Shown: piece by piece, positions 3,300 through 22,750 of the stretch
Layout: each line of letters opens with the position of its first letter
Position numbering within the stretch: the first letter of the stretch is position 1
Source of the DNA: Alkalilimnicola ehrlichii MLHE-1
Lineage (GTDB): Bacteria > Pseudomonadota > Gammaproteobacteria > Nitrococcales > Halorhodospiraceae
Direction: 5' to 3'
Assembly (NCBI RefSeq): GCF_000014785.1
Contig: NC_008340.1
Span: forward strand, 2,550,001 to 2,582,000
DNA: 32,000 nucleotides
Notes under the pieces: generated by a model
Told to the model about the DNA's origin: nothing
Databases searched by the model: none
The model's input: the letters and a program-made list of their open reading frames with translations, nothing else
Position numbers and translations under genes: made by a program

Positions 3300-4655
3300 A
3301 TGGCTGAGGGGCATATCGCCGTGGTCGGCGGCGGTGTTTCGGGACTGACTGCAGCCTGGCTCCTCAGCCGGCGCTATCGGGTCACGCTGTTCGAGCGCAA
3401 CGGCTACGTCGGCGGGCACACCCATACCGTGGAGGCCATGCTCCCCGAGGGCGCCGTCCCGGTGGATACCGGCTTTATTGTCTACAACGAGCCGAATTAC
3501 CCGGGGCTCACGGCACTCTTTCGCCACCTGGGGGTCCCCACCCGGCCCAGCGACATGTCCTTCGCGCTGTCGGTACTGGACGAGGACATCGAATGGTCGG
3601 GCGACAACCTGGGCACCCTGTTCGCCCGGCGCCGCCACCTGCTCAGCCCCCGCTTCCTGCGCATGGTCGTGGATATCCTGCGCTTCAACCGCCACGCCCG
3701 CGGCTACCTGCGCCGCGGCGTCCCGGAGCGGCTGACCCTCGGCGACTACCTGCGCGAGCGCGGCCTGGGGCGCGGTTTCACCGACCACTACCTGCTGCCC
3801 ATGGCGGCCGCCATCTGGTCCTGCCCCCAGGCCAGCCTGCACGAGTTCCCGCTGGCGCGCTTTCTGCGCTTTTTTGACCAGCACGGACTGATCCGACTCG
3901 GCAACCGACCGCAATGGCGCACCGTCCAGGGCGGCGGCCGCGAGTATGTCCAACGCATGCTGCCCGCCCTCCACGCCTACCATATCAACACCCCCGTGCG
4001 GCGGGTGCAGCGGACAACCGACGGCGTCACGCTCTTCGGTGATGGCGGGTGTCTCGGCCACTTCGACCAGGTGGTCCTGGGCGGGCACGCCGACGAGAGC
4101 CTGGCCATGCTGGCCCAGCCCAGTGACGACGAGGCCGCACTGCTCGGCCGTTTCCGTTACCAGAGCAACGAGGCCGTGCTGCACACCGATCCAGCCCTGA
4201 TGCCCCGCCGCCGCGCGATCTGGGCCAGCTGGAACCACCTGACGCGGCGGGACGAGGCGGGCCGGCAACCGGTCTCGGTCACCTATTGGATGAACCGCCT
4301 GCAAGGGCTCACCACCCATCGTGATCTGTTCGTCACCCTCAACCCCGCCATCCCGGTCCGGGAGGAGCAGGTGCTGCGGCGGATGCATTACAGTCACCCG
4401 GTGTTCGACCGTGATACCCACCGCGCACAACAGGGGCTGCCCCGTCTCCAGGGCCGGCGGCACACTTGGTTCTGCGGCAGCTATTTCGGCTATGGTTTCC
4501 ATGAGGACGGAGTGCAGTCCGCCGTCCGGGTGGCCTGGGGGCTGGGCGTCGCCGCGCCCTGGGCGACGACCACGACCGCCGACACCGCAACCGATATCGG
4601 CCCCGAGGGCACGCCCGACTGGGCCGTCGCCTGCGCGGGGGAGGAGCGGCGATGA
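3300..4655 (+). CDS. NAD(P)/FAD-dependent oxidoreductase (amine-oxidase / desaturase-like flavoprotein)
   Basis: 451 aa. The N-terminal dinucleotide-binding fingerprint is IAVVGGGVSGLTAAWLL...VTLFE. This family is commonly paired with Cfa-like methyltransferases. Its stop overlaps the next start (ATGA at 4652-4655). Confidence 0.8.
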   Translation: MAEGHIAVVGGGVSGLTAAWLLSRRYRVTLFERNGYVGGHTHTVEAMLPEGAVPVDTGFIVYNEPNYPGLTALFRHLGVPTRPSDMSFALSVLDEDIEWSGDNLGTLFARRRHLLSPRFLRMVVDILRFNRHARGYLRRGVPERLTLGDYLRERGLGRGFTDHYLLPMAAAIWSCPQASLHEFPLARFLRFFDQHGLIRLGNRPQWRTVQGGGREYVQRMLPALHAYHINTPVRRVQRTTDGVTLFGDGGCLGHFDQVVLGGHADESLAMLAQPSDDEAALLGRFRYQSNEAVLHTDPALMPRRRAIWASWNHLTRRDEAGRQPVSVTYWMNRLQGLTTHRDLFVTLNPAIPVREEQVLRRMHYSHPVFDRDTHRAQQGLPRLQGRRHTWFCGSYFGYGFHEDGVQSAVRVAWGLGVAAPWATTTTADTATDIGPEGTPDWAVACAGEERR

Positions 4656-9475: not shown

Positions 9476-9730
9476 CCCCGCCATCACAAGGCACCGGAGC
9501 CCCAAGCCCGTCATCGCGACGAGCGCCCCCTCCCCCGTCATCGCGAGGGCCGAAGGCTTTCCCCCCGTCATCGCGAGGGCCGAAGGCCCGTGGCGATCCA
9601 GGGCGGTAGACTGCCACGTCGGCTTCGCCTCCTCGCAGTGACAGTGGGGGCGGGTCCCCGCTCGCAGTGACAGTGGGGGTGGGTCCCCGCTCGCAGTGAC
9701 GGTGGGGGTGGCGCTTTCCGCCGTGACGGT
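9476..9730. repeat. REP/REPIN-like palindromic element cluster A: one full element flanked by extra half-sites on both sides
   Basis: The full element is gtcatcgcgagggccgaaggcccgtggcgatccagggcggtagactgccacgtcggcttcgcctcctcgcagtgac (about 9567-9642). Extra left heads sit near 9479, 9509 and 9536. Extra right heads end at 9671, 9700 and 9727. Confidence 0.85.
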
Positions 9731-11647: not shown

Positions 11648-11711
11648 AGTATCCCTCGTTCAACCCGAATGATTGCCCGCCGACCACCGCCGCAGGCCCC
11701 TTGGCGCCCCC

Positions 11712-11822
11712 TCCCCCCGTCATCGCGAGGGCCGAAGGCCCGTGGCGATCCAGAGGGGTAGACTGCCACGTCGGCTTCGCCTCCTCGCAGTGACGGGGCG
11801 GGCCCTCGCTCGCCGTAACCGT
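11712..11822. repeat. REP/REPIN-like element cluster B: one full 76-bp element plus a degenerate half-site
   Basis: Positions 11719-11794 read gtcatcgcgagggccgaaggcccgtggcgatccagaggggtagactgccacgtcggcttcgcctcctcgcagtgac. The degenerate ccctcgctcgccgtaacc follows. It lies between the tkt stop and the gap start. Confidence 0.85.
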
Positions 11823-11839
11823 TGGAGACTGGGCTGCGC

Positions 11840-13840
11840 TCAGATCACCGTGGTGCTGGCCTTGACCACCGCGTCGACGTTGATGCCGAAATGCTCGTAG
11901 AGTGCCGGCCCCGGTGCCGACTCGCCGAAGGTGTCGATGCCGATCACCCGGCCGCGGTCGCCCAGCAGCGCCTGCCAGGGCATCGGGTGGGCCGCCTCCA
12001 TGGCGATCACCGGCACCCCCGCCGGCAGCACCGCCTCGCGGTAGTCGGCCGGCTGCGACTGGAACACCTCCAGACAGGGCATGGACACCACCCGCACCCG
12101 CCGGCCCCGGTCGGCCAGCCGCTCGGCCGCCTCCACCATGATCGCCACCTCACTGCCGGTGGCCATCAGGATCAGCTCCGCCTCACCCTGCTTGGGCTCG
12201 GCCAGCACATAACCGCCGCGCCGAATCAACGCCACCTGCTCGTCGGTGCGCTGCTGCGCCACCAACCCCTGGCGCGAGAGCGCCAGCAGACTCGGCCCGT
12301 CACGGCGCTCCAGCGCCGCCTGCCACGCCGCCTGGGTCTCAATGGCATCGCACGGGCGCCAGACATCCAGCCCCGGGATCATGCGCAGACTCCCCAGATG
12401 CTCCACCGGCTGGTGGGTCGGGCCATCCTCGCCCAGACCGATAGAGTCGTGGGTGTGGACAAAGATCTGCTGTATGCCCATCAGCGCCGCCATGCGGATG
12501 GCGTTGCGCGCGTAATCGGAGAACACCAGAAAGGTGCCGGTGTAGGGGATGAACCCGCCGTGCAGCGCCAGCCCGTTGGCAATGGCGCTCATGCCGAACT
12601 CACGCACCCCGTAGTGGAGGTAATTGCCATCGGCGTCGGCCTTCGCCCCGCCGATCACCGCGCAGTCTTCCCACTTGGTGTTGTTGGAGCCGGACAGGTC
12701 CGCCGAGCCGCCGAGCAGCTCCGGCAGGTACGGCCCCAGCCGGTTGAGCGCCTGCTCCGAGGCCTTGCGCGTGGCCACCTTGGCCGACTCGTCCACCGCC
12801 TCGGCCAGCGCCTCCTCGGCGTGCTGGGCAAACCGCTCGGGCAGCGCGCCCTTCATCCGCCGCTCAAACTCCGCCGCCATCTCCGGGTGCGCCTTGCGGT
12901 AAGCGGCCAGCCGCTCGTGCCAGGCCGCCTCCAACTGCTTGCCGCGCGCCCGCGCATCCCACCCGCTGTAGATCTCGCGCGGGATCTCAAACGGCCCGTG
13001 CTCCCACTTCAGGAACTCGCGCGTGGCCTGGATCTCCTCATCGCCCAGCGGCGCACCGTGCACCCCGTGGGTGCCGCAGACGTTGGGCGCGCCAAAGCCG
13101 ATCACCGTCTTGCAGCAGATCAGGCTCGGCCGGTCGGTCACCGCACGCGCCTCATCAATGGCGCGCTTGATCGCCTCCGAATCGTGCCCGTCCACCTCGC
13201 GCACCACATGCCAGCCGTAAGCCTCAAACCGGCCCGGCGTATCGTCGGTGAACCAGCCCTCCACCTTGCCGTCAATGGAGATGCCGTTGTCGTCGTAAAA
13301 ACCGATCAGCTTGCCCAGCTTCCATGTGCCGGCCAGCGAGCAGGCCTCGTGACTCACCCCCTCCATCAGACAGCCATCGCCCAGGAAGCAGTAGGTCCAG
13401 TGATCCACCAGCTCGTGGCCCGGGCGGTTGAACTGCGCGGCCAGGGTGCGCTCGGCCAGCGCCAGCCCCACCGCGTTGGCCAGCCCCTGGCCCAGCGGCC
13501 CGGTGGTGGTCTCCACCCCCGCGGTGTAGCCGTACTCCGGGTGACCGGGGGTCCTGGAGTGCAGTTGGCGGAAGGCCTTCAGATCGTCAATGCCCAGCTC
13601 ATAGCCCGACAGGTGCAGCAGGCTGTAAAGCAGCATCGAGCCGTGACCGTTGGAGAGCACAAACCGGTCCCGGTCCCACCAGTGGGGGTTGGCCGGGTTG
13701 TGGCGCAGATAGTCGTTCCACAGCACTTCGGCAATATCCGCCATGCCCATGGGCGCGCCCGGGTGACCGGAATGGGCGCGCTGCACCGCGTCCATGGACA
13801 GGGCTCGGATGGCATTGGCCAGATCTCGGCGTGTGGGCAT
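11840..13840 (-). CDS. tkt: transketolase
   Basis: 666 aa: [41 protein letters not shown]..., followed by the ThDP-binding [13 protein letters not shown]. The match to the Tkt family runs the full length. Confidence 0.95.
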
Positions 13841-14034
13841 TACGGTTCCCCCGGGGTTGCATATAGATCAAGGGCGCTTATTGTCCTGTAGAGCCGGGTC
13901 GCCGGCAAGTTGGCGGGCCTCGCACTCACCGGGTGAGACCGCTACAATCGGCAGTTCGTCGAAAACGGCACCGCAAACACCCGTCGCGGCCACGCAACCG
14001 GGCGCGAGACAACCACAACACAGAGGAGCTTGGG

Positions 14035-15192
14035 GTGAGCGAATACCTGTTCACGTCAGAGTCGGTTTCCGAGGGCCATCCGGACAAGATGGCGGACCAG
14101 ATCTCCGACGCCGTGCTCGATGCCATCCTCGCCGAAGACCCCAGGGGCCGGATCGCCTGCGAGACGATGATCAAGACCGGAATCATCATCCTGGGCGGCG
14201 AGGTGACCACCTCGGCCAACATCGACTACGAGGCCGTGGCCCGGGAGACGGTCAAGCGCATCGGCTACAAACACCACGAGATGGGCTTCGATGGCGAGAC
14301 CTGCGGGGTCATCAACATCCTCGGCAAGCAGTCGGTGGACATCGCCCAGGGGGTCGACCGCGACCATCCGGAGGAACAGGGTGCCGGCGACCAGGGGCTG
14401 ATGTTCGGCTACGCCAGCAACGAGACCGATGTGCTGATGCCCGCCCCGATCACCTACGCCCACCGGCTGGTACAGCGCCAAGCGGAGGTGCGCTGTAACG
14501 GCCAGCTGCCCTGGCTGCGTCCGGATGCCAAGAGCCAGGTCACCCTGCGCTACGTGGACGGCCGCCCGGTGGCGGTGGACACGGTGGTGCTCTCCACCCA
14601 GCACGCCCCCGACCTCACCCAAGCCCAGGTGCACGAGGCGGTGATCGAGGAGATCATCAAGCCGGTATTGCCCGAGCAGTGGATCACCGGCGAGACCCGC
14701 TACCTGGTGAACCCCACCGGTCGCTTCGTGATCGGTGGCCCGGTGGGCGACTGCGGCCTGACCGGACGCAAGATCATTGTCGACACCTACGGCGGCATGG
14801 CCCGCCACGGCGGCGGCTGCTTCTCGGGCAAGGACCCGTCCAAGGTGGACCGCTCCGCCGCCTACGCCTGCCGCTACGTGGCCAAGAACATCGTCGCCGC
14901 AGGGCTCGCCGAGCGCTGTGAGATCCAGGTCTCCTACGCCATCGGCGTGGCCGAACCCACCTCCATCAGCGTGGAGACCTTCGGCACCGGCCGCGTGGAC
15001 AGCGAGAAGCTGACCCGCATCGTGCGCGAGCACTTCGACCTGCGCCCCTACGGCATCCTGAAGATGCTCGACCTGATCCGCCCGATCTACACCGCCACGG
15101 CCGCCTACGGCCACTTTGGCCGCGAGGACGAGGGCTTCCCCTGGGAGCGCATCGACCGCGCCGAGGAGATCCGCGACGCGGCCGGCCTGTAG
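14035..15192 (+). CDS. metK: S-adenosylmethionine synthetase
   Basis: I use the internal GTG at 14035 of track ORF 13933..15192, with AGGAG 7 nt upstream. The sequence is (M)[31 protein letters not shown]...[12 protein letters not shown]...[19 protein letters not shown]. Confidence 0.93.
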
Positions 15193-15213
15193 CGGGCAGA
15201 GCACCCGGCGCCG

Positions 15214-15290
15214 CCCCGAGGAGCGCTGCAACAGGGCCGCCGGCCCTGCCAGGCTCGGGGATGGCGCCCCATCGTTCCAACGGCGCTCAG
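15214..15290 (+). promoter_or_regulatory. SAH (S-adenosylhomocysteine) riboswitch in the ahcY leader
   Basis: CCCCGAGGAGCGCUGCAACAGGGCCGCCGGCCCUGCCAGGCUCGGGG...CCAACGGCGCUCAG. P1 pairs 15214-15220 with 15254-15260. The P2 hairpin pairs 15232-15238 with 15242-15248. The pseudoknot pairs GAGCGC 15221-15226 with GCGCUC 15283-15288. The GAGGAGCGCUGC / AGGCUCGG / AACGGCGCUC blocks match the SAH riboswitch consensus as I recall it, and the element sits in the usual position upstream of ahcY. Confidence 0.75.
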
Positions 15291-15309
15291 CGAAATCGGA
15301 GTCTGCACC

Positions 15310-16722
15310 ATGAATGCTGTCGTGGATACCAACGCCAACGACTACATCGTGCGCGACATCGGCCTCGCTGACTGGGGCCGTAAGGAAATCGCCATCGCCG
15401 AGACAGAGATGCCCGGCCTGATGGCGGTGCGCGAGGAATACCGCAACGAGCAGCCGCTCAAGGGCGCCCGCATCGCCGGGAGCCTGCACATGACCATCCA
15501 GACCGCCGTGCTCATTGAGGCGCTGATCGAGCTGGGGGCCGAGGTGCGCTGGGCGTCCTGCAACATCTACTCCACCCAGGATCACGCCGCCGCGGCCATC
15601 GCCGCCCAGGGCATCCCGGTGTTCGCCTACAAGGGCGAGACCCTGGATGAGTACTGGGACTACTGCCACCGGATCTTCGAGTTCGAGGGCGAGCCGGCCA
15701 ACATGATCCTCGACGACGGCGGCGATGCCACCCTGCTGCTCAACCTGGGCGCCAAAGCCGAGCAGGACGCCTCTGTGCTGGACAACCCGGGCAGCGACGA
15801 GGAAAAGGCCCTGTTCGTCGCCATCCGCAACCGCCTGGAGAGCCAGCCTGGTTGGTACAGCGAGCGGCTGGCCGCCATCCAGGGGGTCACCGAGGAGACC
15901 ACCACCGGCGTCAACCGCCTGGTGCGCATGGCCAACGAGGGCACCCTGCCCTTCCCCGCCATCAACGTGAACGACTCGGTCACCAAGTCCAAGTTCGACA
16001 ACCTCTACGGCTGCCGCGAATCGCTGCTGGACGGCATCAAGCGGGCCACCGACGTGATGATCGCCGGCAAGATCTGCGTGGTGGCGGGCTACGGCGACGT
16101 GGGCAAGGGCTGCGCCCAGAGCCTCCGCGGCCAGGGCGCCACCGTCTGGATCACCGAGATCGACCCCATCTGTGCCCTGCAGGCGGCCATGGAGGGCTAC
16201 CGGGTGGTCACCATGGACGAGGCCGCTGACAAGGCGGACATCTTCGTCACCGCCACCGGCAACTACCACGTGATCACCGGCGAACACCTGAGGGCGATGA
16301 AGCACAACGCCATCGTCTGCAACATCGGCCACTTCGACAACGAGATTGACGTGGCCAGCCTGCGCGACTGCGAGTGGGACAACATCAAGCCGCAGGTGGA
16401 CCACATCACCCTGCCCAGCGGCAACAAGATCATCCTGCTGGCCGAGGGCCGGCTGGTGAACCTGGGCTGCGCCACCGGGCACCCGAGCTTCGTGATGTCC
16501 AACTCCTTCACCAACCAGGTGTTGGCCCAAATCGAGCTGTTCGCCCACGGGGAGAAGTACGACAAGCAGGTCTACGTGCTGCCCAAGCACCTGGACGAGA
16601 AGGTCGCGCAGCTCCACCTGCAGAAGATCGGCGCACAACTGACAGCGCTGACCCCGGAACAGGCGGAATACATCGGCGTGCCGGTGGAGGGGCCTTACAA
16701 GCCGGAACACTACCGGTACTGA
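15310..16722 (+). CDS. ahcY: adenosylhomocysteinase
   Basis: 470 aa: [34 protein letters not shown]...[38 protein letters not shown]...HFDNEID. The match to AhcY runs the full length. Confidence 0.95.
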
Positions 16723-16731
16723 CGGGGGACC

Positions 16732-17525
16732 GTCACTGCGAGGAGGCGAAGCCGACGTGGCAGTCTACCGCCCTGGATCGCCACGGGCCTGCGGCCCTCG
16801 CGATGACGGGGGTGGCGCCCCACCGTCACTGCGAGGAGGCGAAGCCGACGCGGCAGTCTACCGCCCTGGATCGCCACGGGCCTGCGGCCCTCGCGATGAC
16901 GGGGGTGGCGCCCCCACCGTCACTGCGAGGAGGCGAAGCCGACGCGGCAGTCCACCGCCCTGGATCGCCACGGGCCTGCGGCCCTCGCGATGACGGGGGT
17001 GGCGCCCCACCGTCACTGCGAGGAGGCGAAGCCGACGCGGCAGTCTACCGCCCTGGATCGCCACGGGCCTGCGGCCCTCGCGATGACGGGGGTGGCGCCC
17101 CCACCGTCACTGCGAGGAGGCGAAGCCGACGCGGCAGTCCACCGCCCTGGATCGCCACGGGCCTGCGGCCCTCGCGATGACGGGGGTGGCGCCCCACCGT
17201 CACTGCGAGGAGGCGAAGCCGACGCGGCAGTCCACCGCCCTGGATCGCCACGGGCCTGCGGCCCTCGCGATGACGGGGGTGGCGCCCCACCGTCACTGCG
17301 AGGAGGCGAAGCCGACGCGGCAGTCTACCGCCCTGGATCGCCACGGGCCTGCGGCCCTCGCGATGACGGGGGTGGCGCCCCCACCGTCACTGCGAGGAGG
17401 CGAAGCCGACGCGGCAGTCTACCGCCCTGGATCGCCACGGGCCTGCGGCCCTCGCGATGACGGGAGGAAGCCTTCGCCTTCGGGATGACGAAGGAAAACA
17501 TTCGGCCCTCGGGATGACGGTGGCG
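16732..17525. repeat. tandem array of 8 near-identical 93/94-bp units (77-bp palindromic element plus 16/17-bp linker), followed by degenerate half-sites
   Basis: Unit starts (gtcactgcgagg) are at 16732, 16825, 16919, 17012, 17106, 17199, 17292 and 17386. The last unit ends about 17462. The degenerate tail (cttcgggatgacg, cctcgggatgacgg) runs to about 17525. The track ORFs across it change frame only after the three 94-bp units, exactly as expected from 93/94-bp units. Confidence 0.92.
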
Positions 17526-17553
17526 GCGCCCCCGTTTGAAAACAGCCCTCAGC

Positions 17554-18423
17554 ATGGAACAATCTCAGACGATGGAATCCCAGAAACAACACCCCCCGGT
17601 CTACAGCTGCGAGTTCTTCCCCCCGCGCACCGAGCAGGGGGTGGAGAAGCTACGTACCACCCGTGAGCGCCTCGCGCGCCTGAACCCGGCCTACTTCTCG
17701 GTGACCTTCGGCGCCGGCGGCTCCACCCGCGACCGCACCTACGAGACGGTCACCGAGATCCAGCGCAGCGGCCTGGAGGCCGCGCCGCACATCTCCTGCA
17801 TCGGCTCCACCCGGGAGAGCATCCGCGAGCTGCTGCACGGCTATCGGGAACAGGGCATCCGCCGCATCGTCGCCCTGCGCGGCGACATGCCCTCCGGCAC
17901 CCGCGACGTAGGCGAGTTCCGCTACGCCAACGAACTGGTGGCCTTCATCCGCGCGGAGACCGGCGACCACTTCCACATCGAGGTGGCCTGCTACCCGGAG
18001 TTCCACCCGCAGGCCCGCGACGCCGAGGCCGACATGGACAACTTCGCCCGCAAGGTCGAGGCCGGGGCCGACGCCGCCATCACCCAGTACTTCTTCAACG
18101 CCGACGCCTACTTTCACTTCGTCGGCCAAGCGGAGAAACGGGGCGTGACCCTCCCCATCGTCCCGGGCATCATGCCCATCATCAACTTCACCCAGCTGGC
18201 CCGCTTCTCCGACGCCTGCGGCGCCGAGATCCCGCGCTGGCTGCGCAAGCGGCTGGAGGCCTATGGCGACGACAAGGCCGCCATCCAGGCCCTGGGCCAT
18301 GAGGTGGTGCGGGATCTCTGCCAGCGGCTACTGGACGGCGGCGCCCCGGGGCTGCATTTTTACAGCATGAACCAGGCGCGCCCGGTGGAGCGCCTGTGGG
18401 CCGACCTGCAGCTCCCCCGCTGA
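17554..18423 (+). CDS. metF: 5,10-methylenetetrahydrofolate reductase
   Basis: The track ORF 17536..18423 starts at TTG. I use the first ATG at 17554 (alternative 17572), and no strong SD is visible. The sequence is YSCEFFPPRTEQGVEKL...FSVTFGAGGSTRDRTYE...EAAPHISCIG...IVALRGD...ITQYFFNAD...HFYSMNQA. Confidence 0.88.
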   Translation: MEQSQTMESQKQHPPVYSCEFFPPRTEQGVEKLRTTRERLARLNPAYFSVTFGAGGSTRDRTYETVTEIQRSGLEAAPHISCIGSTRESIRELLHGYREQGIRRIVALRGDMPSGTRDVGEFRYANELVAFIRAETGDHFHIEVACYPEFHPQARDAEADMDNFARKVEAGADAAITQYFFNADAYFHFVGQAEKRGVTLPIVPGIMPIINFTQLARFSDACGAEIPRWLRKRLEAYGDDKAAIQALGHEVVRDLCQRLLDGGAPGLHFYSMNQARPVERLWADLQLPR

Positions 18424-19935: not shown

Positions 19936-20988
19936 TTACCGGGCGGGGATGATCGGATCGTCCTCGTCCGGTCCCTCGCCGCTGACCAGACGCGCCTGGG
20001 CCAGGTTCTCCCCCACCAGGGTCTCGATCTCCAGCACGCCCTTCACCGCCCCGGGCACCCAGGCCACCGGGCGACCGCTGGGTGAGCGGATCACCCGGCT
20101 GCCGTCACGCACCTGCAGGCTCATGCCCTCGCTCAGACCGGCGGCCTGGCCGGCGCCGAGGAAATAGACGCCCTCCTCCTCGGCAAAGCTGCGGGTGAAC
20201 CAGGGGGCGTTGCCCATGCGGTCCATCATGCCCAGGAGTACCCGGTCGGCGTAGGCCTCCAGCGCCGGGCGGGCCACCTGACCGTCCACGGCCGGCAGTT
20301 CCACCGCGCTACCGGCGTACTCGGCGTCCAGGCCGACATCGAAGGTGGTGGTGCGCAGGCGTACCGCATCCTCGCCCCGTGGCTCGACCTCGATCAGCGC
20401 GAGCATCCGCAGTCCGGGATACCGGGACAGCCCGGCCAGGCAGTCACTAACCTCCCCCGCCGTGCAGCCGTAGTCAGCAATCTGGGAGCGCACCAGCTCG
20501 CTGCCGGAGAAGAGCAGTGGGTAGTCCCGGGAGACCCCGGCCAGCGCATTGCCCAGGCGGGTCTCCAGGCCGCCGTCCGGCGTCTGGATGATGACCCCCA
20601 CGTGGGGCAGCAGCGCCCCTTCCGGCCGCTGTGCCGGCCGGTGCACCCCGCGCTCGGTGCCCTCCGCGGCCAGCGCCTGTTGCTGCAGCGACCGCTCCAG
20701 CTGCTGGATCCGCTGCTCCAGGGCCTGCTCGCGCTCACTGTCATCGGGCCCACCGCGGCCGAACAGCCGGTCCAGCAGCGGACGCTCATCGCGCTCGGCC
20801 TCGTCCTGCTCCTCACACTGCTCCGGCCAGAAGACGCAGGTCAAAACGCCCTTGCGCTCGAACTCGTGATCCCAGGGGGTGCGCTGTTCACGCTCGGGCG
20901 GTTGCACCCCACCCGTACCGCAGCCCGCCAACAGGGCAAGGGAAAGCAATAAAACAACGAGAGACAACAGCTTGCGCGAGACGGACAT
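19936..20988 (-). CDS. hypothetical lipoprotein (350 aa)
   Basis: I use the internal ATG at 20988 of track ORF 19936..21192. The lipoprotein signal MSVSRKLLSLVVLLLSLALLAGC has an LAGC lipobox. An acidic, coiled-coil-like segment follows (EREQALEQRIQQLERSLQQQALAAEG), then a globular C-terminal part. I recognise no family. The upstream 68 codons of the ORF run into the repeat cluster. Confidence 0.6.
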   Translation of the reverse strand: MSVSRKLLSLVVLLLSLALLAGCGTGGVQPPEREQRTPWDHEFERKGVLTCVFWPEQCEEQDEAERDERPLLDRLFGRGGPDDSEREQALEQRIQQLERSLQQQALAAEGTERGVHRPAQRPEGALLPHVGVIIQTPDGGLETRLGNALAGVSRDYPLLFSGSELVRSQIADYGCTAGEVSDCLAGLSRYPGLRMLALIEVEPRGEDAVRLRTTTFDVGLDAEYAGSAVELPAVDGQVARPALEAYADRVLLGMMDRMGNAPWFTRSFAEEEGVYFLGAGQAAGLSEGMSLQVRDGSRVIRSPSGRPVAWVPGAVKGVLEIETLVGENLAQARLVSGEGPDEDDPIIPAR

Positions 20989-21104
20989 GTTCACCTGGCC
21001 GGGTTGTGGGGAGTGATGATGACAGCCGACAAGGTTAAGCCGGTGCCGGCGTCTCGGCAAGCCTGTTGGAGCACTTGATCGAGCGGGAAGGGCCCGCCGC
21101 CCCC

Positions 21105-21512
21105 ACTCCCACTGCGAGCCCTCGCCCCCATCACCCGTCACTGCGGGCCCCCGAAGGGGACGCGGCAGTCCAGGCCGCGTGTGGATTGCCACGTCGCTTC
21201 GCTCCTCGCAATGACGGGGTGGTGACCCCCACCGTCATCGCGAGCCCCGACCTATCACCCGTCACTGCGAGCCCCAACCCATCACCCGTCACTGCGAGCC
21301 CCAACCCATCACCCGTCACTGCGAGGAGCGAAGCGACGTGGCAGTCTACCCCTCTGGATGGCCACGGGCCTTCGGCCCTCGCGATGACGGGGAGGAGGTG
21401 GACGGCCTCGCGGTAACGGGGGTACGCCGTTCTTCCTTGATTCGGGCCCGCGCAGCCGGGGGGGTGAGGCTCGCGATGACGGTGCGAAAAGCTTCCGGGC
21501 TCGTGAGGACGG
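21105..21512. repeat. REP/REPIN-like element cluster D: two full elements, a 27-bp-period head array, and degenerate half-sites
   Basis: A variant full element spans 21137-21215 (gtcactgcgggcccccgaaggggacgcggcagtcc...ctcgcaatgac). Heads sit at 21234, 21261, 21288 and 21315, a 27-bp period. A full element spans 21315-21388. Half-sites lie near 21408, 21469 and 21498. Confidence 0.85.
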
Positions 21513-21536
21513 AAAATGCCGTTATGCAGCCAACCG

Positions 21537-22187
21537 TCAGAACGGCTCGGGGATGCCGATGGCCTCGTCCCAGCGGTTGACGATGCCGCAGAACAGGTCC
21601 GCCGTCTTCTCCGCATCGTAGATCGCCGAGTGGGCCGCCTTGCCGTCCCACTCCTCGCCCGAGGCCACCAGGGCCTTGGCCAGCACGGTCTGACCGTAGG
21701 CCAGCCCGGCCAGGGTCGCGGTGTCGAAACTGGTGAAGGGGTGGAAGGGATTGCGCTTGATGCCGCAACGCTGCACCGCCGCGTTCAGGAACCCCAGGTC
21801 AAAAAAGCTGTTGTGGCCGATGAGCACGGCCCGGTTGCACCCGGTCTGACGCACCTCCTGGCGGATCGGCCGGAAGACCTTCTTCAGCGCCTCGTCCTCC
21901 GGCAGGGCCATGCGCAGCGGGTGGTCCGGATCGATCCCGTTCAGTTCCAGGGCCTTGGGGTCGATATTGGCGCCCTCGAAGGGCTTCACATGGCAAGTGT
22001 GGGTCGCGGCCGGGTAGAGCCGCCCGTTCTCGTCCATGCGCAGCACCACGGCCGCGATCTGCAGCAGCGCATCCGTCGCCGCATTGAGCCCGCCGGTCTC
22101 CACATCCACCACCACGGGCAGGAAGCCACGGAACCGCTTGCTGATGCGCTGGCTGAAGTTGGTGCCTACCGGGTTGGGTTCACTCAT
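21537..22187 (-). CDS. rnt: ribonuclease T (DEDDh 3'-5' exonuclease)
   Basis: I use the internal ATG at 22187 of track ORF 21537..22505. The sequence is [47 protein letters not shown]...[16 protein letters not shown]...[14 protein letters not shown]. The upstream part of the ORF is repeat-derived. Confidence 0.9.
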
Positions 22188-22267
22188 CTCGCTCTCGGAC
22201 CGGGGGTGAACCGGCCATCTTAAGCACCCAGGGGAAGGGCTGCAAGCGGCGGGGAGGCACCACCTCC

Positions 22268-22735
22268 CGTCATGGCAAGGGCCGAAGGCTTTCCCCCCGT
22301 CATCGCGAGGGCCGAAGGCCCGTGGCGATCCCGAGGGGTAGACTGCCACGTCGGCTTCGCCTCCTCGCAGTGACGGTGGGGGCAACCTTCCGCTTCCGGC
22401 ACAGTCCAGTTCTTCAAGAGGAGCGCAGCGACGTGGTGATCCACACCCCGCCTGGACTGCCTGCCACGCCCCTGCGGGGGCTCGCAGTGACGGTGGAGGC
22501 GGCACCCACCCCCGTCATCGCCAGGAGCGAAGCGACACGGCGATCCACACCCCGCCATGGACTGCCACGCCCCTACGGGGCTCGCAGTGACGGTGGGGCG
22601 GCACCACTCCCCGTCATCGCGAGGAGCGCAGCGACGTGGCGATCCAGACGCCGCATGGACTGCCACGCCCCCTTCGGGGGCTCGCAGTGACGGGTGATGG
22701 GGGCGGGGGCTCGCGGTGACGGGTGATGGGCGGGG
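22268..22735. repeat. REP/REPIN-like element cluster E: one canonical element plus three elements of a second subtype, and half-sites
   Basis: The canonical element spans 22299-22374. Subtype-2 elements span 22418-22491 (left head missing), 22514-22591 and 22613-22691 (gtcatcgcgaggagcgcagcgacgtggcgatccagacgccgcatggactgccacgcccccttcgggggctcgcagtgac). A half-site ctcgcggtgac lies near 22713. Confidence 0.85.
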
Positions 22736-22750
22736 GCGCACGCCCGGTTT

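Follow-up and report, generated by a model that had tools for sequence, protein, structure and literature searches.

Why does the spacer between ahcY and metF hold eight near-identical tandem units in Alkalilimnicola ehrlichii MLHE-1? The locus lies in a 32,000-nt stretch of contig NC_008340.1 (positions 2,550,001–2,582,000), hereafter the window, whose first letter is position 1 in all coordinates below, and 831 bp separate the ahcY stop codon from the first metF ATG. Our preferred reading, in which we have high confidence, is that the spacer contains a cluster resembling bacterial interspersed mosaic elements (BIMEs), built from a CGTC-tagged, Ssn-linked family of repetitive extragenic palindromes (REPs), and that this cluster arose as a side product of a repeat system, selfish or domesticated, and was not built for this operon. 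The element is not special to the ahcY-metF spacer: the array is one cluster of a dispersed, Ssn-associated family of CGTC hairpins, which had been missed by the original prediction, made from the sequence alone.

Tandem Repeats Finder delimited the array at 16729–17464, with a period of 93, 7.9 copies and 98 % matches, and also returned higher-order periods of 187 and 280. Extraction of the units placed their starts at 16732, 16825, 16919, 17012, 17106, 17199, 17292 and 17386. Each unit has a 77-bp core, and the units are joined by G/C linkers of 16 or 17 nt (16, 17, 16, 17, 16, 16 and 17, in order). Within the core, variation is confined to position 27 (T,C,C,C,C,C,C,C across the units) and position 35 (T,T,C,T,C,C,T,T), and units 2+3 and 4+5 are identical 187-bp pairs. 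The original prediction had the eight units, the variable sites, the linker lengths and the 187-bp pairs exactly right. It also ran the array on to 17525, although full units end at 17464 and the sequence at 17465–17520 consists of decayed, 28-bp head-only fragments, of which the corresponding spacer of strain SGAR-12 has two extra copies. A CRISPR was ruled out because the linkers are identical instead of unique, and a protein-coding repeat because the 94-bp units shift the reading frame. A literature search with GTCATTGCGAG and related strings returned only unrelated primer matches.

The 77-bp core is composed of two inverted halves of ~36 nt, GTCACTGCGAGGAGGCGAAGCCGACGCGGCAGTC-TAC on the left and the reverse complement of GTCATCGCGAGGGCCGCAGGCCCGTGGCGATC-CAG on the right, with their heads outward. 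The hairpin formed by each half has a CGTC head that is left unpaired, a basal stem of 5 bp (AYYGC/GCRRT), an internal loop and a short G+C apical stem; directly after the stem come a conserved C and a tail resembling CCA, C(C/T)A. Right halves end in …GCGAT-CCAG and left halves in …GCAGT-CTAC or -CCAC. We collected 33 halves (18 distinct sequences) from the window and locus L060 with a pattern that did not require complementarity, and the YY of AYYGC paired with the RR of GCRRT in every one of them, as CT/AG (15 halves), TC/GA (13) or TT/AA (5). Every full element combines a CT/AG half, on the left, with a TC/GA half, on the right. When the entire core is folded as a long 77-nt hairpin, a C·A mismatch and a T·G wobble fall exactly at the sites where the halves self-pair perfectly. 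The unit is a heterodimer of two ~36-nt hairpins, each with its own perfectly covarying stem, and not one 77-bp palindrome under selection; the original prediction had described it as a single 77-bp imperfect palindrome. As RNA, the long hairpin of an array unit reaches −46.4 kcal/mol (z = −3.6) and the two half hairpins together −30.3 kcal/mol. Because the stems covary while the favored RNA fold is the long hairpin with its mismatches, the covariation argues that selection acts on the half hairpin, as a putative DNA-protein recognition element, and not on RNA stability or a role as RNA. The GTC before the stem and the C after it were present in 33 of 33 half-elements, a count obtained with search patterns in which GTC was fixed and the base following the stem could only be C or G.

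The family is dense across the window. Its terminal 11-mer, GTCAYYGCGAG, is found 37 times where 0.14 occurrences would be expected, and there are 29 CGTC half-sites of 36–38 nt, against 0.02 expected, all of them with HGTC followed by the stem and all situated between open reading frames (ORFs). A profile search with the array units identified 12 high-identity copies in all, plus ~4 diverged copies of a second subfamily. Four full copies lie outside the array (Table 1), are 93–96 % identical, and occupy the spacers between purC and an FAA hydrolase gene, gap and tkt, an unknown ORF and an RNase T-like gene, and the latter and an ABC ATPase gene. On either side of single copies, runs of C and of G prolong the palindrome, and direct repeats are absent. 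No transposase, whether of insertion sequences (ISs) or of the Y1 type, was found in the window, and the elements do not have the hallmarks of miniature inverted-repeat transposable elements there, that is, terminal inverted repeats matching an IS together with target-site duplications. They do conform to the general description of REPs, short extragenic imperfect palindromes in many copies (29 half-sites in 32 kb), and the array conforms to that of BIMEs, with alternating REPs in tandem, 16- or 17-nt linkers and a copy number that varies (3, 8 or 9). The likeness to REP elements proposed in the original prediction therefore holds for a dispersed extragenic hairpin family with a BIME-like array.

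A link to a nuclease emerged from metagenomes. A scan with a 34-nt half in which the four stem positions were left free matched at least 120 stretches, on contigs of 40–75 % G+C; the half-element thus occurs in many other genomes, across bacteria. Among the matches listed, 129 copies carried 118 TT/AA, 4 CT/AG, 4 TC/GA and 3 TT/GA combinations, the latter pairing through G·T, so that 126 were Watson-Crick paired, 3 were wobble paired and none was broken; both GTC and C were fixed by the pattern, and these copies are thus no independent test of the invariance of either. Unbiased clustering of the ORFs within 400 bp of a half-element gave, as the dominant family, ~95-aa proteins consisting only of a GIY-YIG domain. 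Using tblastn we located 14 GIY-YIG genes in 13 of the 120 repeat-selected loci listed (0.73 Mb), and none in either the 80 loci selected by metF (1.33 Mb) or the window. There are at least 7,980 homologs of these proteins. For the reverse test, six of them were picked only for long contigs and varied taxa, including Nitrosomonas nitrosa, a Planctomycetaceae metagenome-assembled genome and Desulfobulbaceae, and all six genes were flanked by CGTC-headed hairpins with heads outward; two of the loci (L209 and L211) have the layout hairpin, gene, inverted hairpin.

Small GIY-YIG proteins have been described as the Ssn family (cd10448), nucleases that are site-specific for single-stranded DNA (Chenal et al. 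2025, Nat Commun 16:2388, PMC11893778). Ssn enzymes bind hairpins, designated NTS or SRM, as single-stranded DNA only and cut a few nt upstream of the head. Repeats typically lie on both sides of the genes encoding them, and for SsnA of N. meningitidis the determinants of binding and cleavage are three conserved nucleotides upstream of the palindrome and the C right after it (PMC11893778), the positions at which the half-elements here have GTC and C. The Ssn proteins found here are likewise of ~95 aa with a single GIY-YIG domain, and the association of hairpin and GIY-YIG gene that we re-derived is already published.

Alkalilimnicola ehrlichii has its own Ssn homolog, P0123 ([quoted passage not shown]), of 95 aa and with a match to PF01541. 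It was the third-ranked match, with 83 % identity, to the Ssn of L106, a metagenome contig with the CT/AG + TC/GA type of element. In strain SGAR-12, a 520-bp repeat cluster starts ~25 bp past the stop codon of the ssn gene (4001–4288 in locus L213) and contains two full 77-bp units (4447–4523 and 4571–4647, E ~1e-26), a half element and 27–29-bp head-only repeats; a second cluster is situated ~900 bp upstream of ssn, beyond a neighboring TauE gene. Short-read contigs of three runs stop at the first repeat of this locus. Repeats thus flank a ~95-aa, single-domain GIY-YIG gene of the same genome in A. ehrlichii and in L106, as they do in the 13 metagenome loci.

Four observations accompany the Ssn link. 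The G+C-rich 34-mer GTCATTGCGAGGAGGCGAAGCCGACGYGGCAATC is unchanged in contigs from 40 % to 75 % G+C (L083–L202; for example L096, L111, L116 and L172, at 40–43 %), which would imply strong sequence-specific constraint or frequent horizontal spread, and not drift. Ssn proteins only ~70 % identical to one another adjoin both types of hairpin, the ATTGCGAG type found here and the published one. In both L211 and L212, a type I restriction-modification operon is interrupted between hsdR and hsdM by an ssn gene that has a single hairpin on either side, which amounts to an IS-like insertion within the operon. Finally, clusters are edged by a head-only stutter, made up of tandem repeats of 27–29 bp that lack the hairpin and combine the 11-nt head GTCAYYGCGAG with ~17 nt of linker. 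This stutter occurs in the window (9632–9711, 17446–17520, 21232–21325 and 22675–22737), in L213 (4389–4446 and 4648–4733), in L106 and in L210, also adjoins ssn genes in other genomes, and may be the footprint of cleavage and repair at the head.

The history of the array can be read from three assemblies, in which the ahcY-metF spacer carries 3 units (SGAR-12, CP184336), 8 units (the window) and 9 units (CP183314). The last is a hybrid assembly from the 2025 re-sequencing of A. ehrlichii MLHE-1T by Nanopore and Illumina (PMC12509624), and encodes an AhcY protein exactly matching that of the window. The array is present in two Nanopore hybrid assemblies, with a read N50 of ~21 kb, and short-read Logan contigs break within unit 1. 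The flanks of the window are 99.5 % identical to those of SGAR-12 and ~99.9 % identical to those of the 2025 assembly. None of the three SGAR-12 units carries the C35 variant, and the order in CP183314 is unit 1, unit 2, three pairs (C35 with a 16-nt linker, then T35 with a 17-nt linker) and unit 9, from which the window differs by lacking one unit of the T35, 17-nt type. The apical loop of the right half is CTGCGG in all 8 units of the window and all 9 of CP183314, and CTTCGG in all 4 dispersed copies; unit 1 alone keeps the T27 of the dispersed type. Since the CTGCGG loop is specific to the founder, the array must have grown by local duplication of unit plus linker, and not by repeated insertion. 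A single founder element was present between ahcY and metF in the ancestor of SGAR-12 and MLHE-1; local amplification then added units together with their linkers, and in the MLHE lineage a double unit of 187 bp was multiplied, with 3, 8 or 9 copies as the outcome. The founder-specific loop and the 187-bp higher-order structure agree with the recent expansion by unequal exchange that the original prediction had put forward, and the hypervariable copy number that it had offered as one option is what the three assemblies display; the array did not collapse to one copy upon long-read sequencing.

Outside the array, the window and CP183314 differ at six positions, all within an 825-bp stretch of tkt (12473–13298); four are synonymous and two cause A>E and S>A, and the remaining ~5.8 kb compared contains no difference. 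This tract looks like the product of gene conversion or of a paralog, or else an assembly mix-up of tkt copies. The window is probably another assembly or another lineage of MLHE-1, and the difference between 3 and 8 or 9 units lies between real strains.

The dispersed elements also differ between the strains. The gap-tkt spacer has one element in MLHE-1 (window 11648–11839) and three in SGAR-12 (L220, 1379–1806), two of the main family and one of the second subfamily, and the family has therefore been active since the strains diverged. The SGAR-12 spacer also contains a segment, cacagtccagttcttcaagagg, that recurs at 22385–22420 of the window and suggests the existence of larger composite repeat modules. 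Arrays with the same head were present in 7 of 134 other loci, with a maximum of 6.4 copies and 84–97 % identity, the ahcY-metF array being the longest and most uniform of those seen. In Nitrosomonas nitrosa (L203, L204 and L205), an array with a period of 232 bp is situated downstream of ssn and its length differs among the three assemblies, so that A. ehrlichii is not alone in having arrays of variable copy number beside ssn.

No relative among the ~80 loci compared has the array at this position. The closest match in a MetF scan of other genomes was 73 % identical, so that orthologous spacers are comparable at the family level only. The ahcY-metF gap was mostly ~30–160 bp in the ~70 orthologous loci where it could be measured; ahcY and metF thus normally form a close pair, in line with the adjacency in other proteobacteria invoked by the original prediction. 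The larger gaps of L022 and L024 are without tandem repeats.

In A. ehrlichii, the array is preceded by a riboswitch for S-adenosylhomocysteine (SAH) and by ahcY, and genes for RimB-like and RimK proteins lie downstream of metF (Table 1). Rfam searches of the spacer, at gathering and permissive thresholds, found no matches beyond noise, and a promoter scan found no credible promoter in the spacer, the stretch from the array to the metF start codon included. Likewise, we found no terminator-like site (a G+C hairpin followed by a U-tract) in 15100–17700, against 1.4 expected, and the array hairpins are thus not recognizable as intrinsic terminators. G and C are equally frequent in the spacer (308 each), which therefore lacks a C-rich tract for loading of Rho. 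Because 14 nt, among them a GGAG, separate the end of the aptamer from the ahcY ATG and there is no terminator, the riboswitch probably controls translation of ahcY and would at no time have governed metF directly; uncoupling metF from the riboswitch, as suggested in the original prediction, is therefore not the best description of what the array does.

Table 1. Position and supporting evidence of genes, riboswitch and repeat elements in the window.
Feature	Position	Strand	Evidence and details
Cluster, purC/FAA-hydrolase spacer	9536–9711	−	Full copy 9566–9642, right-end fragment, three 29-bp head-only repeats 9632–9711
Single 77-bp copy, gap/tkt spacer	11718–11794	−	nhmmer E = 3e-24; RNA fold −57 kcal/mol
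metK	13933–15192		Part of the metK-ahcY-metF row
SAH riboswitch aptamer	15212–15295	+	Rfam RF01057, 69.7 bits (gathering score 37), E = 4e-11
ahcY (S-adenosylhomocysteine hydrolase)	15310–16722	+	Pfam AdoHcyase, E = 3e-147; stop codon 16720–16722
Tandem array, 8 units	16730–17464	+	Tandem Repeats Finder; unit extraction; nhmmer E ~1e-23 per unit
Decayed head-only right-end fragments (…CTTCGGGATGACG, …CCTCGGGATGACGG)	17465–17520	+	Tandem Repeats Finder 17446–17520, period 28, 2.6 copies
metF (methylenetetrahydrofolate reductase)	17554–18423	+	Pfam MTHFR, E = 3e-88; PGAP start 17572
Cluster	21137–21480	+	Diverged TT/AA element 21137–21216, 27-bp head-only repeats 21232–21325, full copy 21315–21389, further end fragments
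Cluster	22298–22737	−	Full copy 22298–22374, three second-subfamily units 22420–22691 (period ~99), head-only repeats 22675–22737

Copy number could change through slippage or unequal recombination between the near-identical units. Cuts by Ssn may stimulate the process: by analogy with SsnA, cleavage is predicted to fall within each linker, on both strands, immediately upstream of a head, and breaks there, repaired among near-identical units, would alter the number of copies, as ordinary slippage would do without the nuclease. Once co-transcribed, the units would form a row of hairpins of about −46 kcal/mol each, the base of the first being 7 nt past the ahcY stop codon (fold of 16729–16812). 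By analogy with REP/BIME elements of E. coli, these would block 3′-to-5′ decay of the ahcY mRNA and attenuate read-through, lowering metF relative to ahcY according to copy number. REPs within ~15 nt of a stop codon reportedly cut expression of the upstream gene via ribosome stalling, in work of Liang, Rudd and Deutscher from 2015. The most likely net effect would be a copy-number-dependent shift of the ahcY:metF ratio. A precedent is REP325 of E. coli, which combines leaky, partly Rho-dependent termination with stabilization of the upstream mRNA (bioRxiv 10.64898/2026.03.23.713779).

How far the element fits published classes bears on the preferred reading, that of a cluster of CGTC-tagged, Ssn-linked REPs. 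CGTC-tagged REPs have a CGTC head (or TGTC or CCTC), a stem starting with an A-T pair and mostly a CCA tail, and are mostly dimers, often heterodimers (Di Nocera, De Gregorio and Rocco 2013, BMC Genomics 14:522, PMC3733652). They "apparently lack a dedicated transposase", since a tyrosine transposase with such repeats on its flanks was not found, and their families CGTC-1 to CGTC-4 have stems of 8–9 bp, with A-T in the first two pairs, and loops of 4–5 nt (PMC3733652). Our elements have the unpaired head of the superfamily (HGTC in 29 of 29 half-sites) and its short CCA-like tail. The SRM pattern HGTCWYN(0-2)YYVSBRHN(0-5)WNVSBRGN(0-2)RNCYNB (PMC11893778) matched all its positive controls (NTS, L206, L209 and L210, the last three with ATTCC-type sites), and missed ATTGCGAG-type sites even beside the ssn genes of A. 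ehrlichii, N. nitrosa and Desulfobulbaceae.

Several points weigh against the preferred reading. The stems and loops do not correspond to those of CGTC-1 to CGTC-4, because the basal stem is of 5 bp, its second pair is T-A or C-G and the interior is of 18–22 nt with an apical stem. The SRM pattern has no match in the window, L203, L207 or L213. The lowest-energy RNA fold is the single long hairpin and not the two covarying half hairpins. The difference between 8 and 9 units may be an assembly error of plus or minus one, the assemblies being probably of the same strain; metF could have an unrecognized promoter; and binding and linker cleavage by Ssn in A. ehrlichii would follow from what is known of N. 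meningitidis SsnA. Since head, tail and gene association fit and the formal patterns fail, membership is by tags and association, and not by published pattern, and the ATTGCGAG-type bipartite hairpin is a putative variant class of the known Ssn/CGTC system, outside its published definitions.

Among the alternatives, a purpose-built regulatory insert, selected here to decouple metF from control by the SAH riboswitch or to terminate transcription after ahcY, would account for an insertion in the normally compact metK-ahcY-metF row, for strong hairpins so close to the ahcY stop codon and for the lack of a detected metF promoter. However, the same element is found in at least four other unrelated intergenic regions within 32 kb, relatives do not have the array in the ~80 loci compared, a U-tract is absent, and a riboswitch that looks translational leaves little to uncouple. 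Moreover, the array is 98–100 % homogeneous and has 3, 8 or 9 copies within one species, and is therefore young and not conserved. We thus regard this alternative as quite improbable; a side effect on expression is likely, and the array need not have been selected for it. Still less probable is a classical REPIN or BIME mobilized by a REP-associated tyrosine transposase (RAYT), in which the association with Ssn would be incidental. The units are indeed doublets of inverted REPs, with fixed linkers, as in BIME-2 or REPINs, and the reverse complement of the left half starts with GTAG (GTGG in variant units) followed by the hairpin, resembling a RAYT-type REP tag (PMC3733652). Yet the outward tag is CGTC on both halves, and the inner tetranucleotide is GTAG or GTGG on one half and CTGG on the other. 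In addition, Di Nocera et al. did not find a tyrosine transposase flanked by CGTC repeats (PMC3733652), the same elements adjoin ssn in A. ehrlichii and L106, and neither of the two stretches scanned, the window and L213, contains a Y1 transposase. An ORF between two repeat clusters (21516–22223), considered as a candidate RAYT, had no Pfam match, and the true gene at this position, on the opposite strand, encodes an RNase T-like exonuclease. Mis-assembly or over-expansion of a repeat would explain why short-read contigs break at the first unit and why two assemblies, probably of the same strain, disagree by one unit. It is hardly credible given that three independent assemblies, two of them Nanopore hybrids, have the array at this locus with consistently ordered unit variants.

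Beyond the preferred reading of a cluster left by a repeat system, we consider rather doubtful a wider proposal in which the ATTGCGAG-type hairpin would be a distinct and very widespread Ssn specificity class missed by SRM searches, cleavage in the linkers would drive expansion and contraction, and the array would be a nuclease-driven contingency locus tuning the ratio of two methyl-cycle enzymes. If it were true, Ssn-dependent repeat dynamics would be directly testable in a culturable, free-living bacterium. As a test system for Ssn, A. ehrlichii offers one identified ssn gene, a repeat class outside the published pattern and a natural series of 3, 8 and 9 units at one locus, in strains available from culture collections. 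The array is also a natural dosage series of REP hairpins in a riboswitch-led row of methyl-cycle genes, suited to tests of hairpin number against expression ratio. In addition, censuses based on the SRM pattern undercount the Ssn system, and arrays of this kind break short-read assemblies.

Four known systems come close to the element. With Ssn NTS/SRM repeats, including the dRS3/NTS clusters of Neisseria, it shares a (C)GTC head upstream of the hairpin, a C straight after the stem with a CYRG-like tail, extragenic copies, intergenic mosaics and repeats flanking a gene for a ~95-aa, single-domain GIY-YIG protein. Copies of NTS/SRM are in the hundreds, and those of A. ehrlichii were counted here within the 32-kb window (29 half-sites). 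The core is of the ATTGCGAG type, with a 5-bp basal stem and a structured interior of 20 nt, whereas NTS/SRM have an 8-bp ATTCCCGC stem and a 4-nt loop; moreover, our elements are obligate heterodimers of two stem variants, form a class known from sequence alone, and belong to a free-living haloalkaliphile instead of a symbiont or pathogen. As in the CGTC superfamily, there is a CGTC head, a first stem pair A-T, a CCA tail and heterodimers, mostly between co-directional or convergent genes. In contrast to the 2013 description of that superfamily, in which clusters were reported to be rare and a dedicated enzyme was not found, clusters are common here, and none of its four families fits.

The resemblance to BIME-2 and REP325 arrays of E. 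coli resides in tandem pairs of REPs in alternating orientation, fixed short linkers, a copy number that varies among strains and a position in the 3′ untranslated region within an operon, with an expected role as exonuclease roadblock and leaky attenuator. The E. coli repeats are of a different REP superfamily, GTAG-tagged and RAYT-associated. The hairpins here are longer and more stable, and their effect on expression is proposed by analogy only. REPIN-RAYT systems (Bertels and Rainey 2011) likewise have an inverted REP doublet as the replicating unit, genomic populations of repeats and a single-copy nuclease gene flanked by them; the enzyme here is a GIY-YIG nuclease, which need not copy the repeats, and not an HUH/Y1 transposase.

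Two minor observations concern ORFs. One on the minus strand (19936–21192; 418 aa, or 350 aa as called in L217) has no Pfam match, and its upstream end adjoins the repeat element at 21137–21216. The array itself generates spurious long ORFs in several frames, of up to 268 aa (16374–17180, 16990–17460 and others), and such repeat-derived "proteins" are likely to pollute protein databases.

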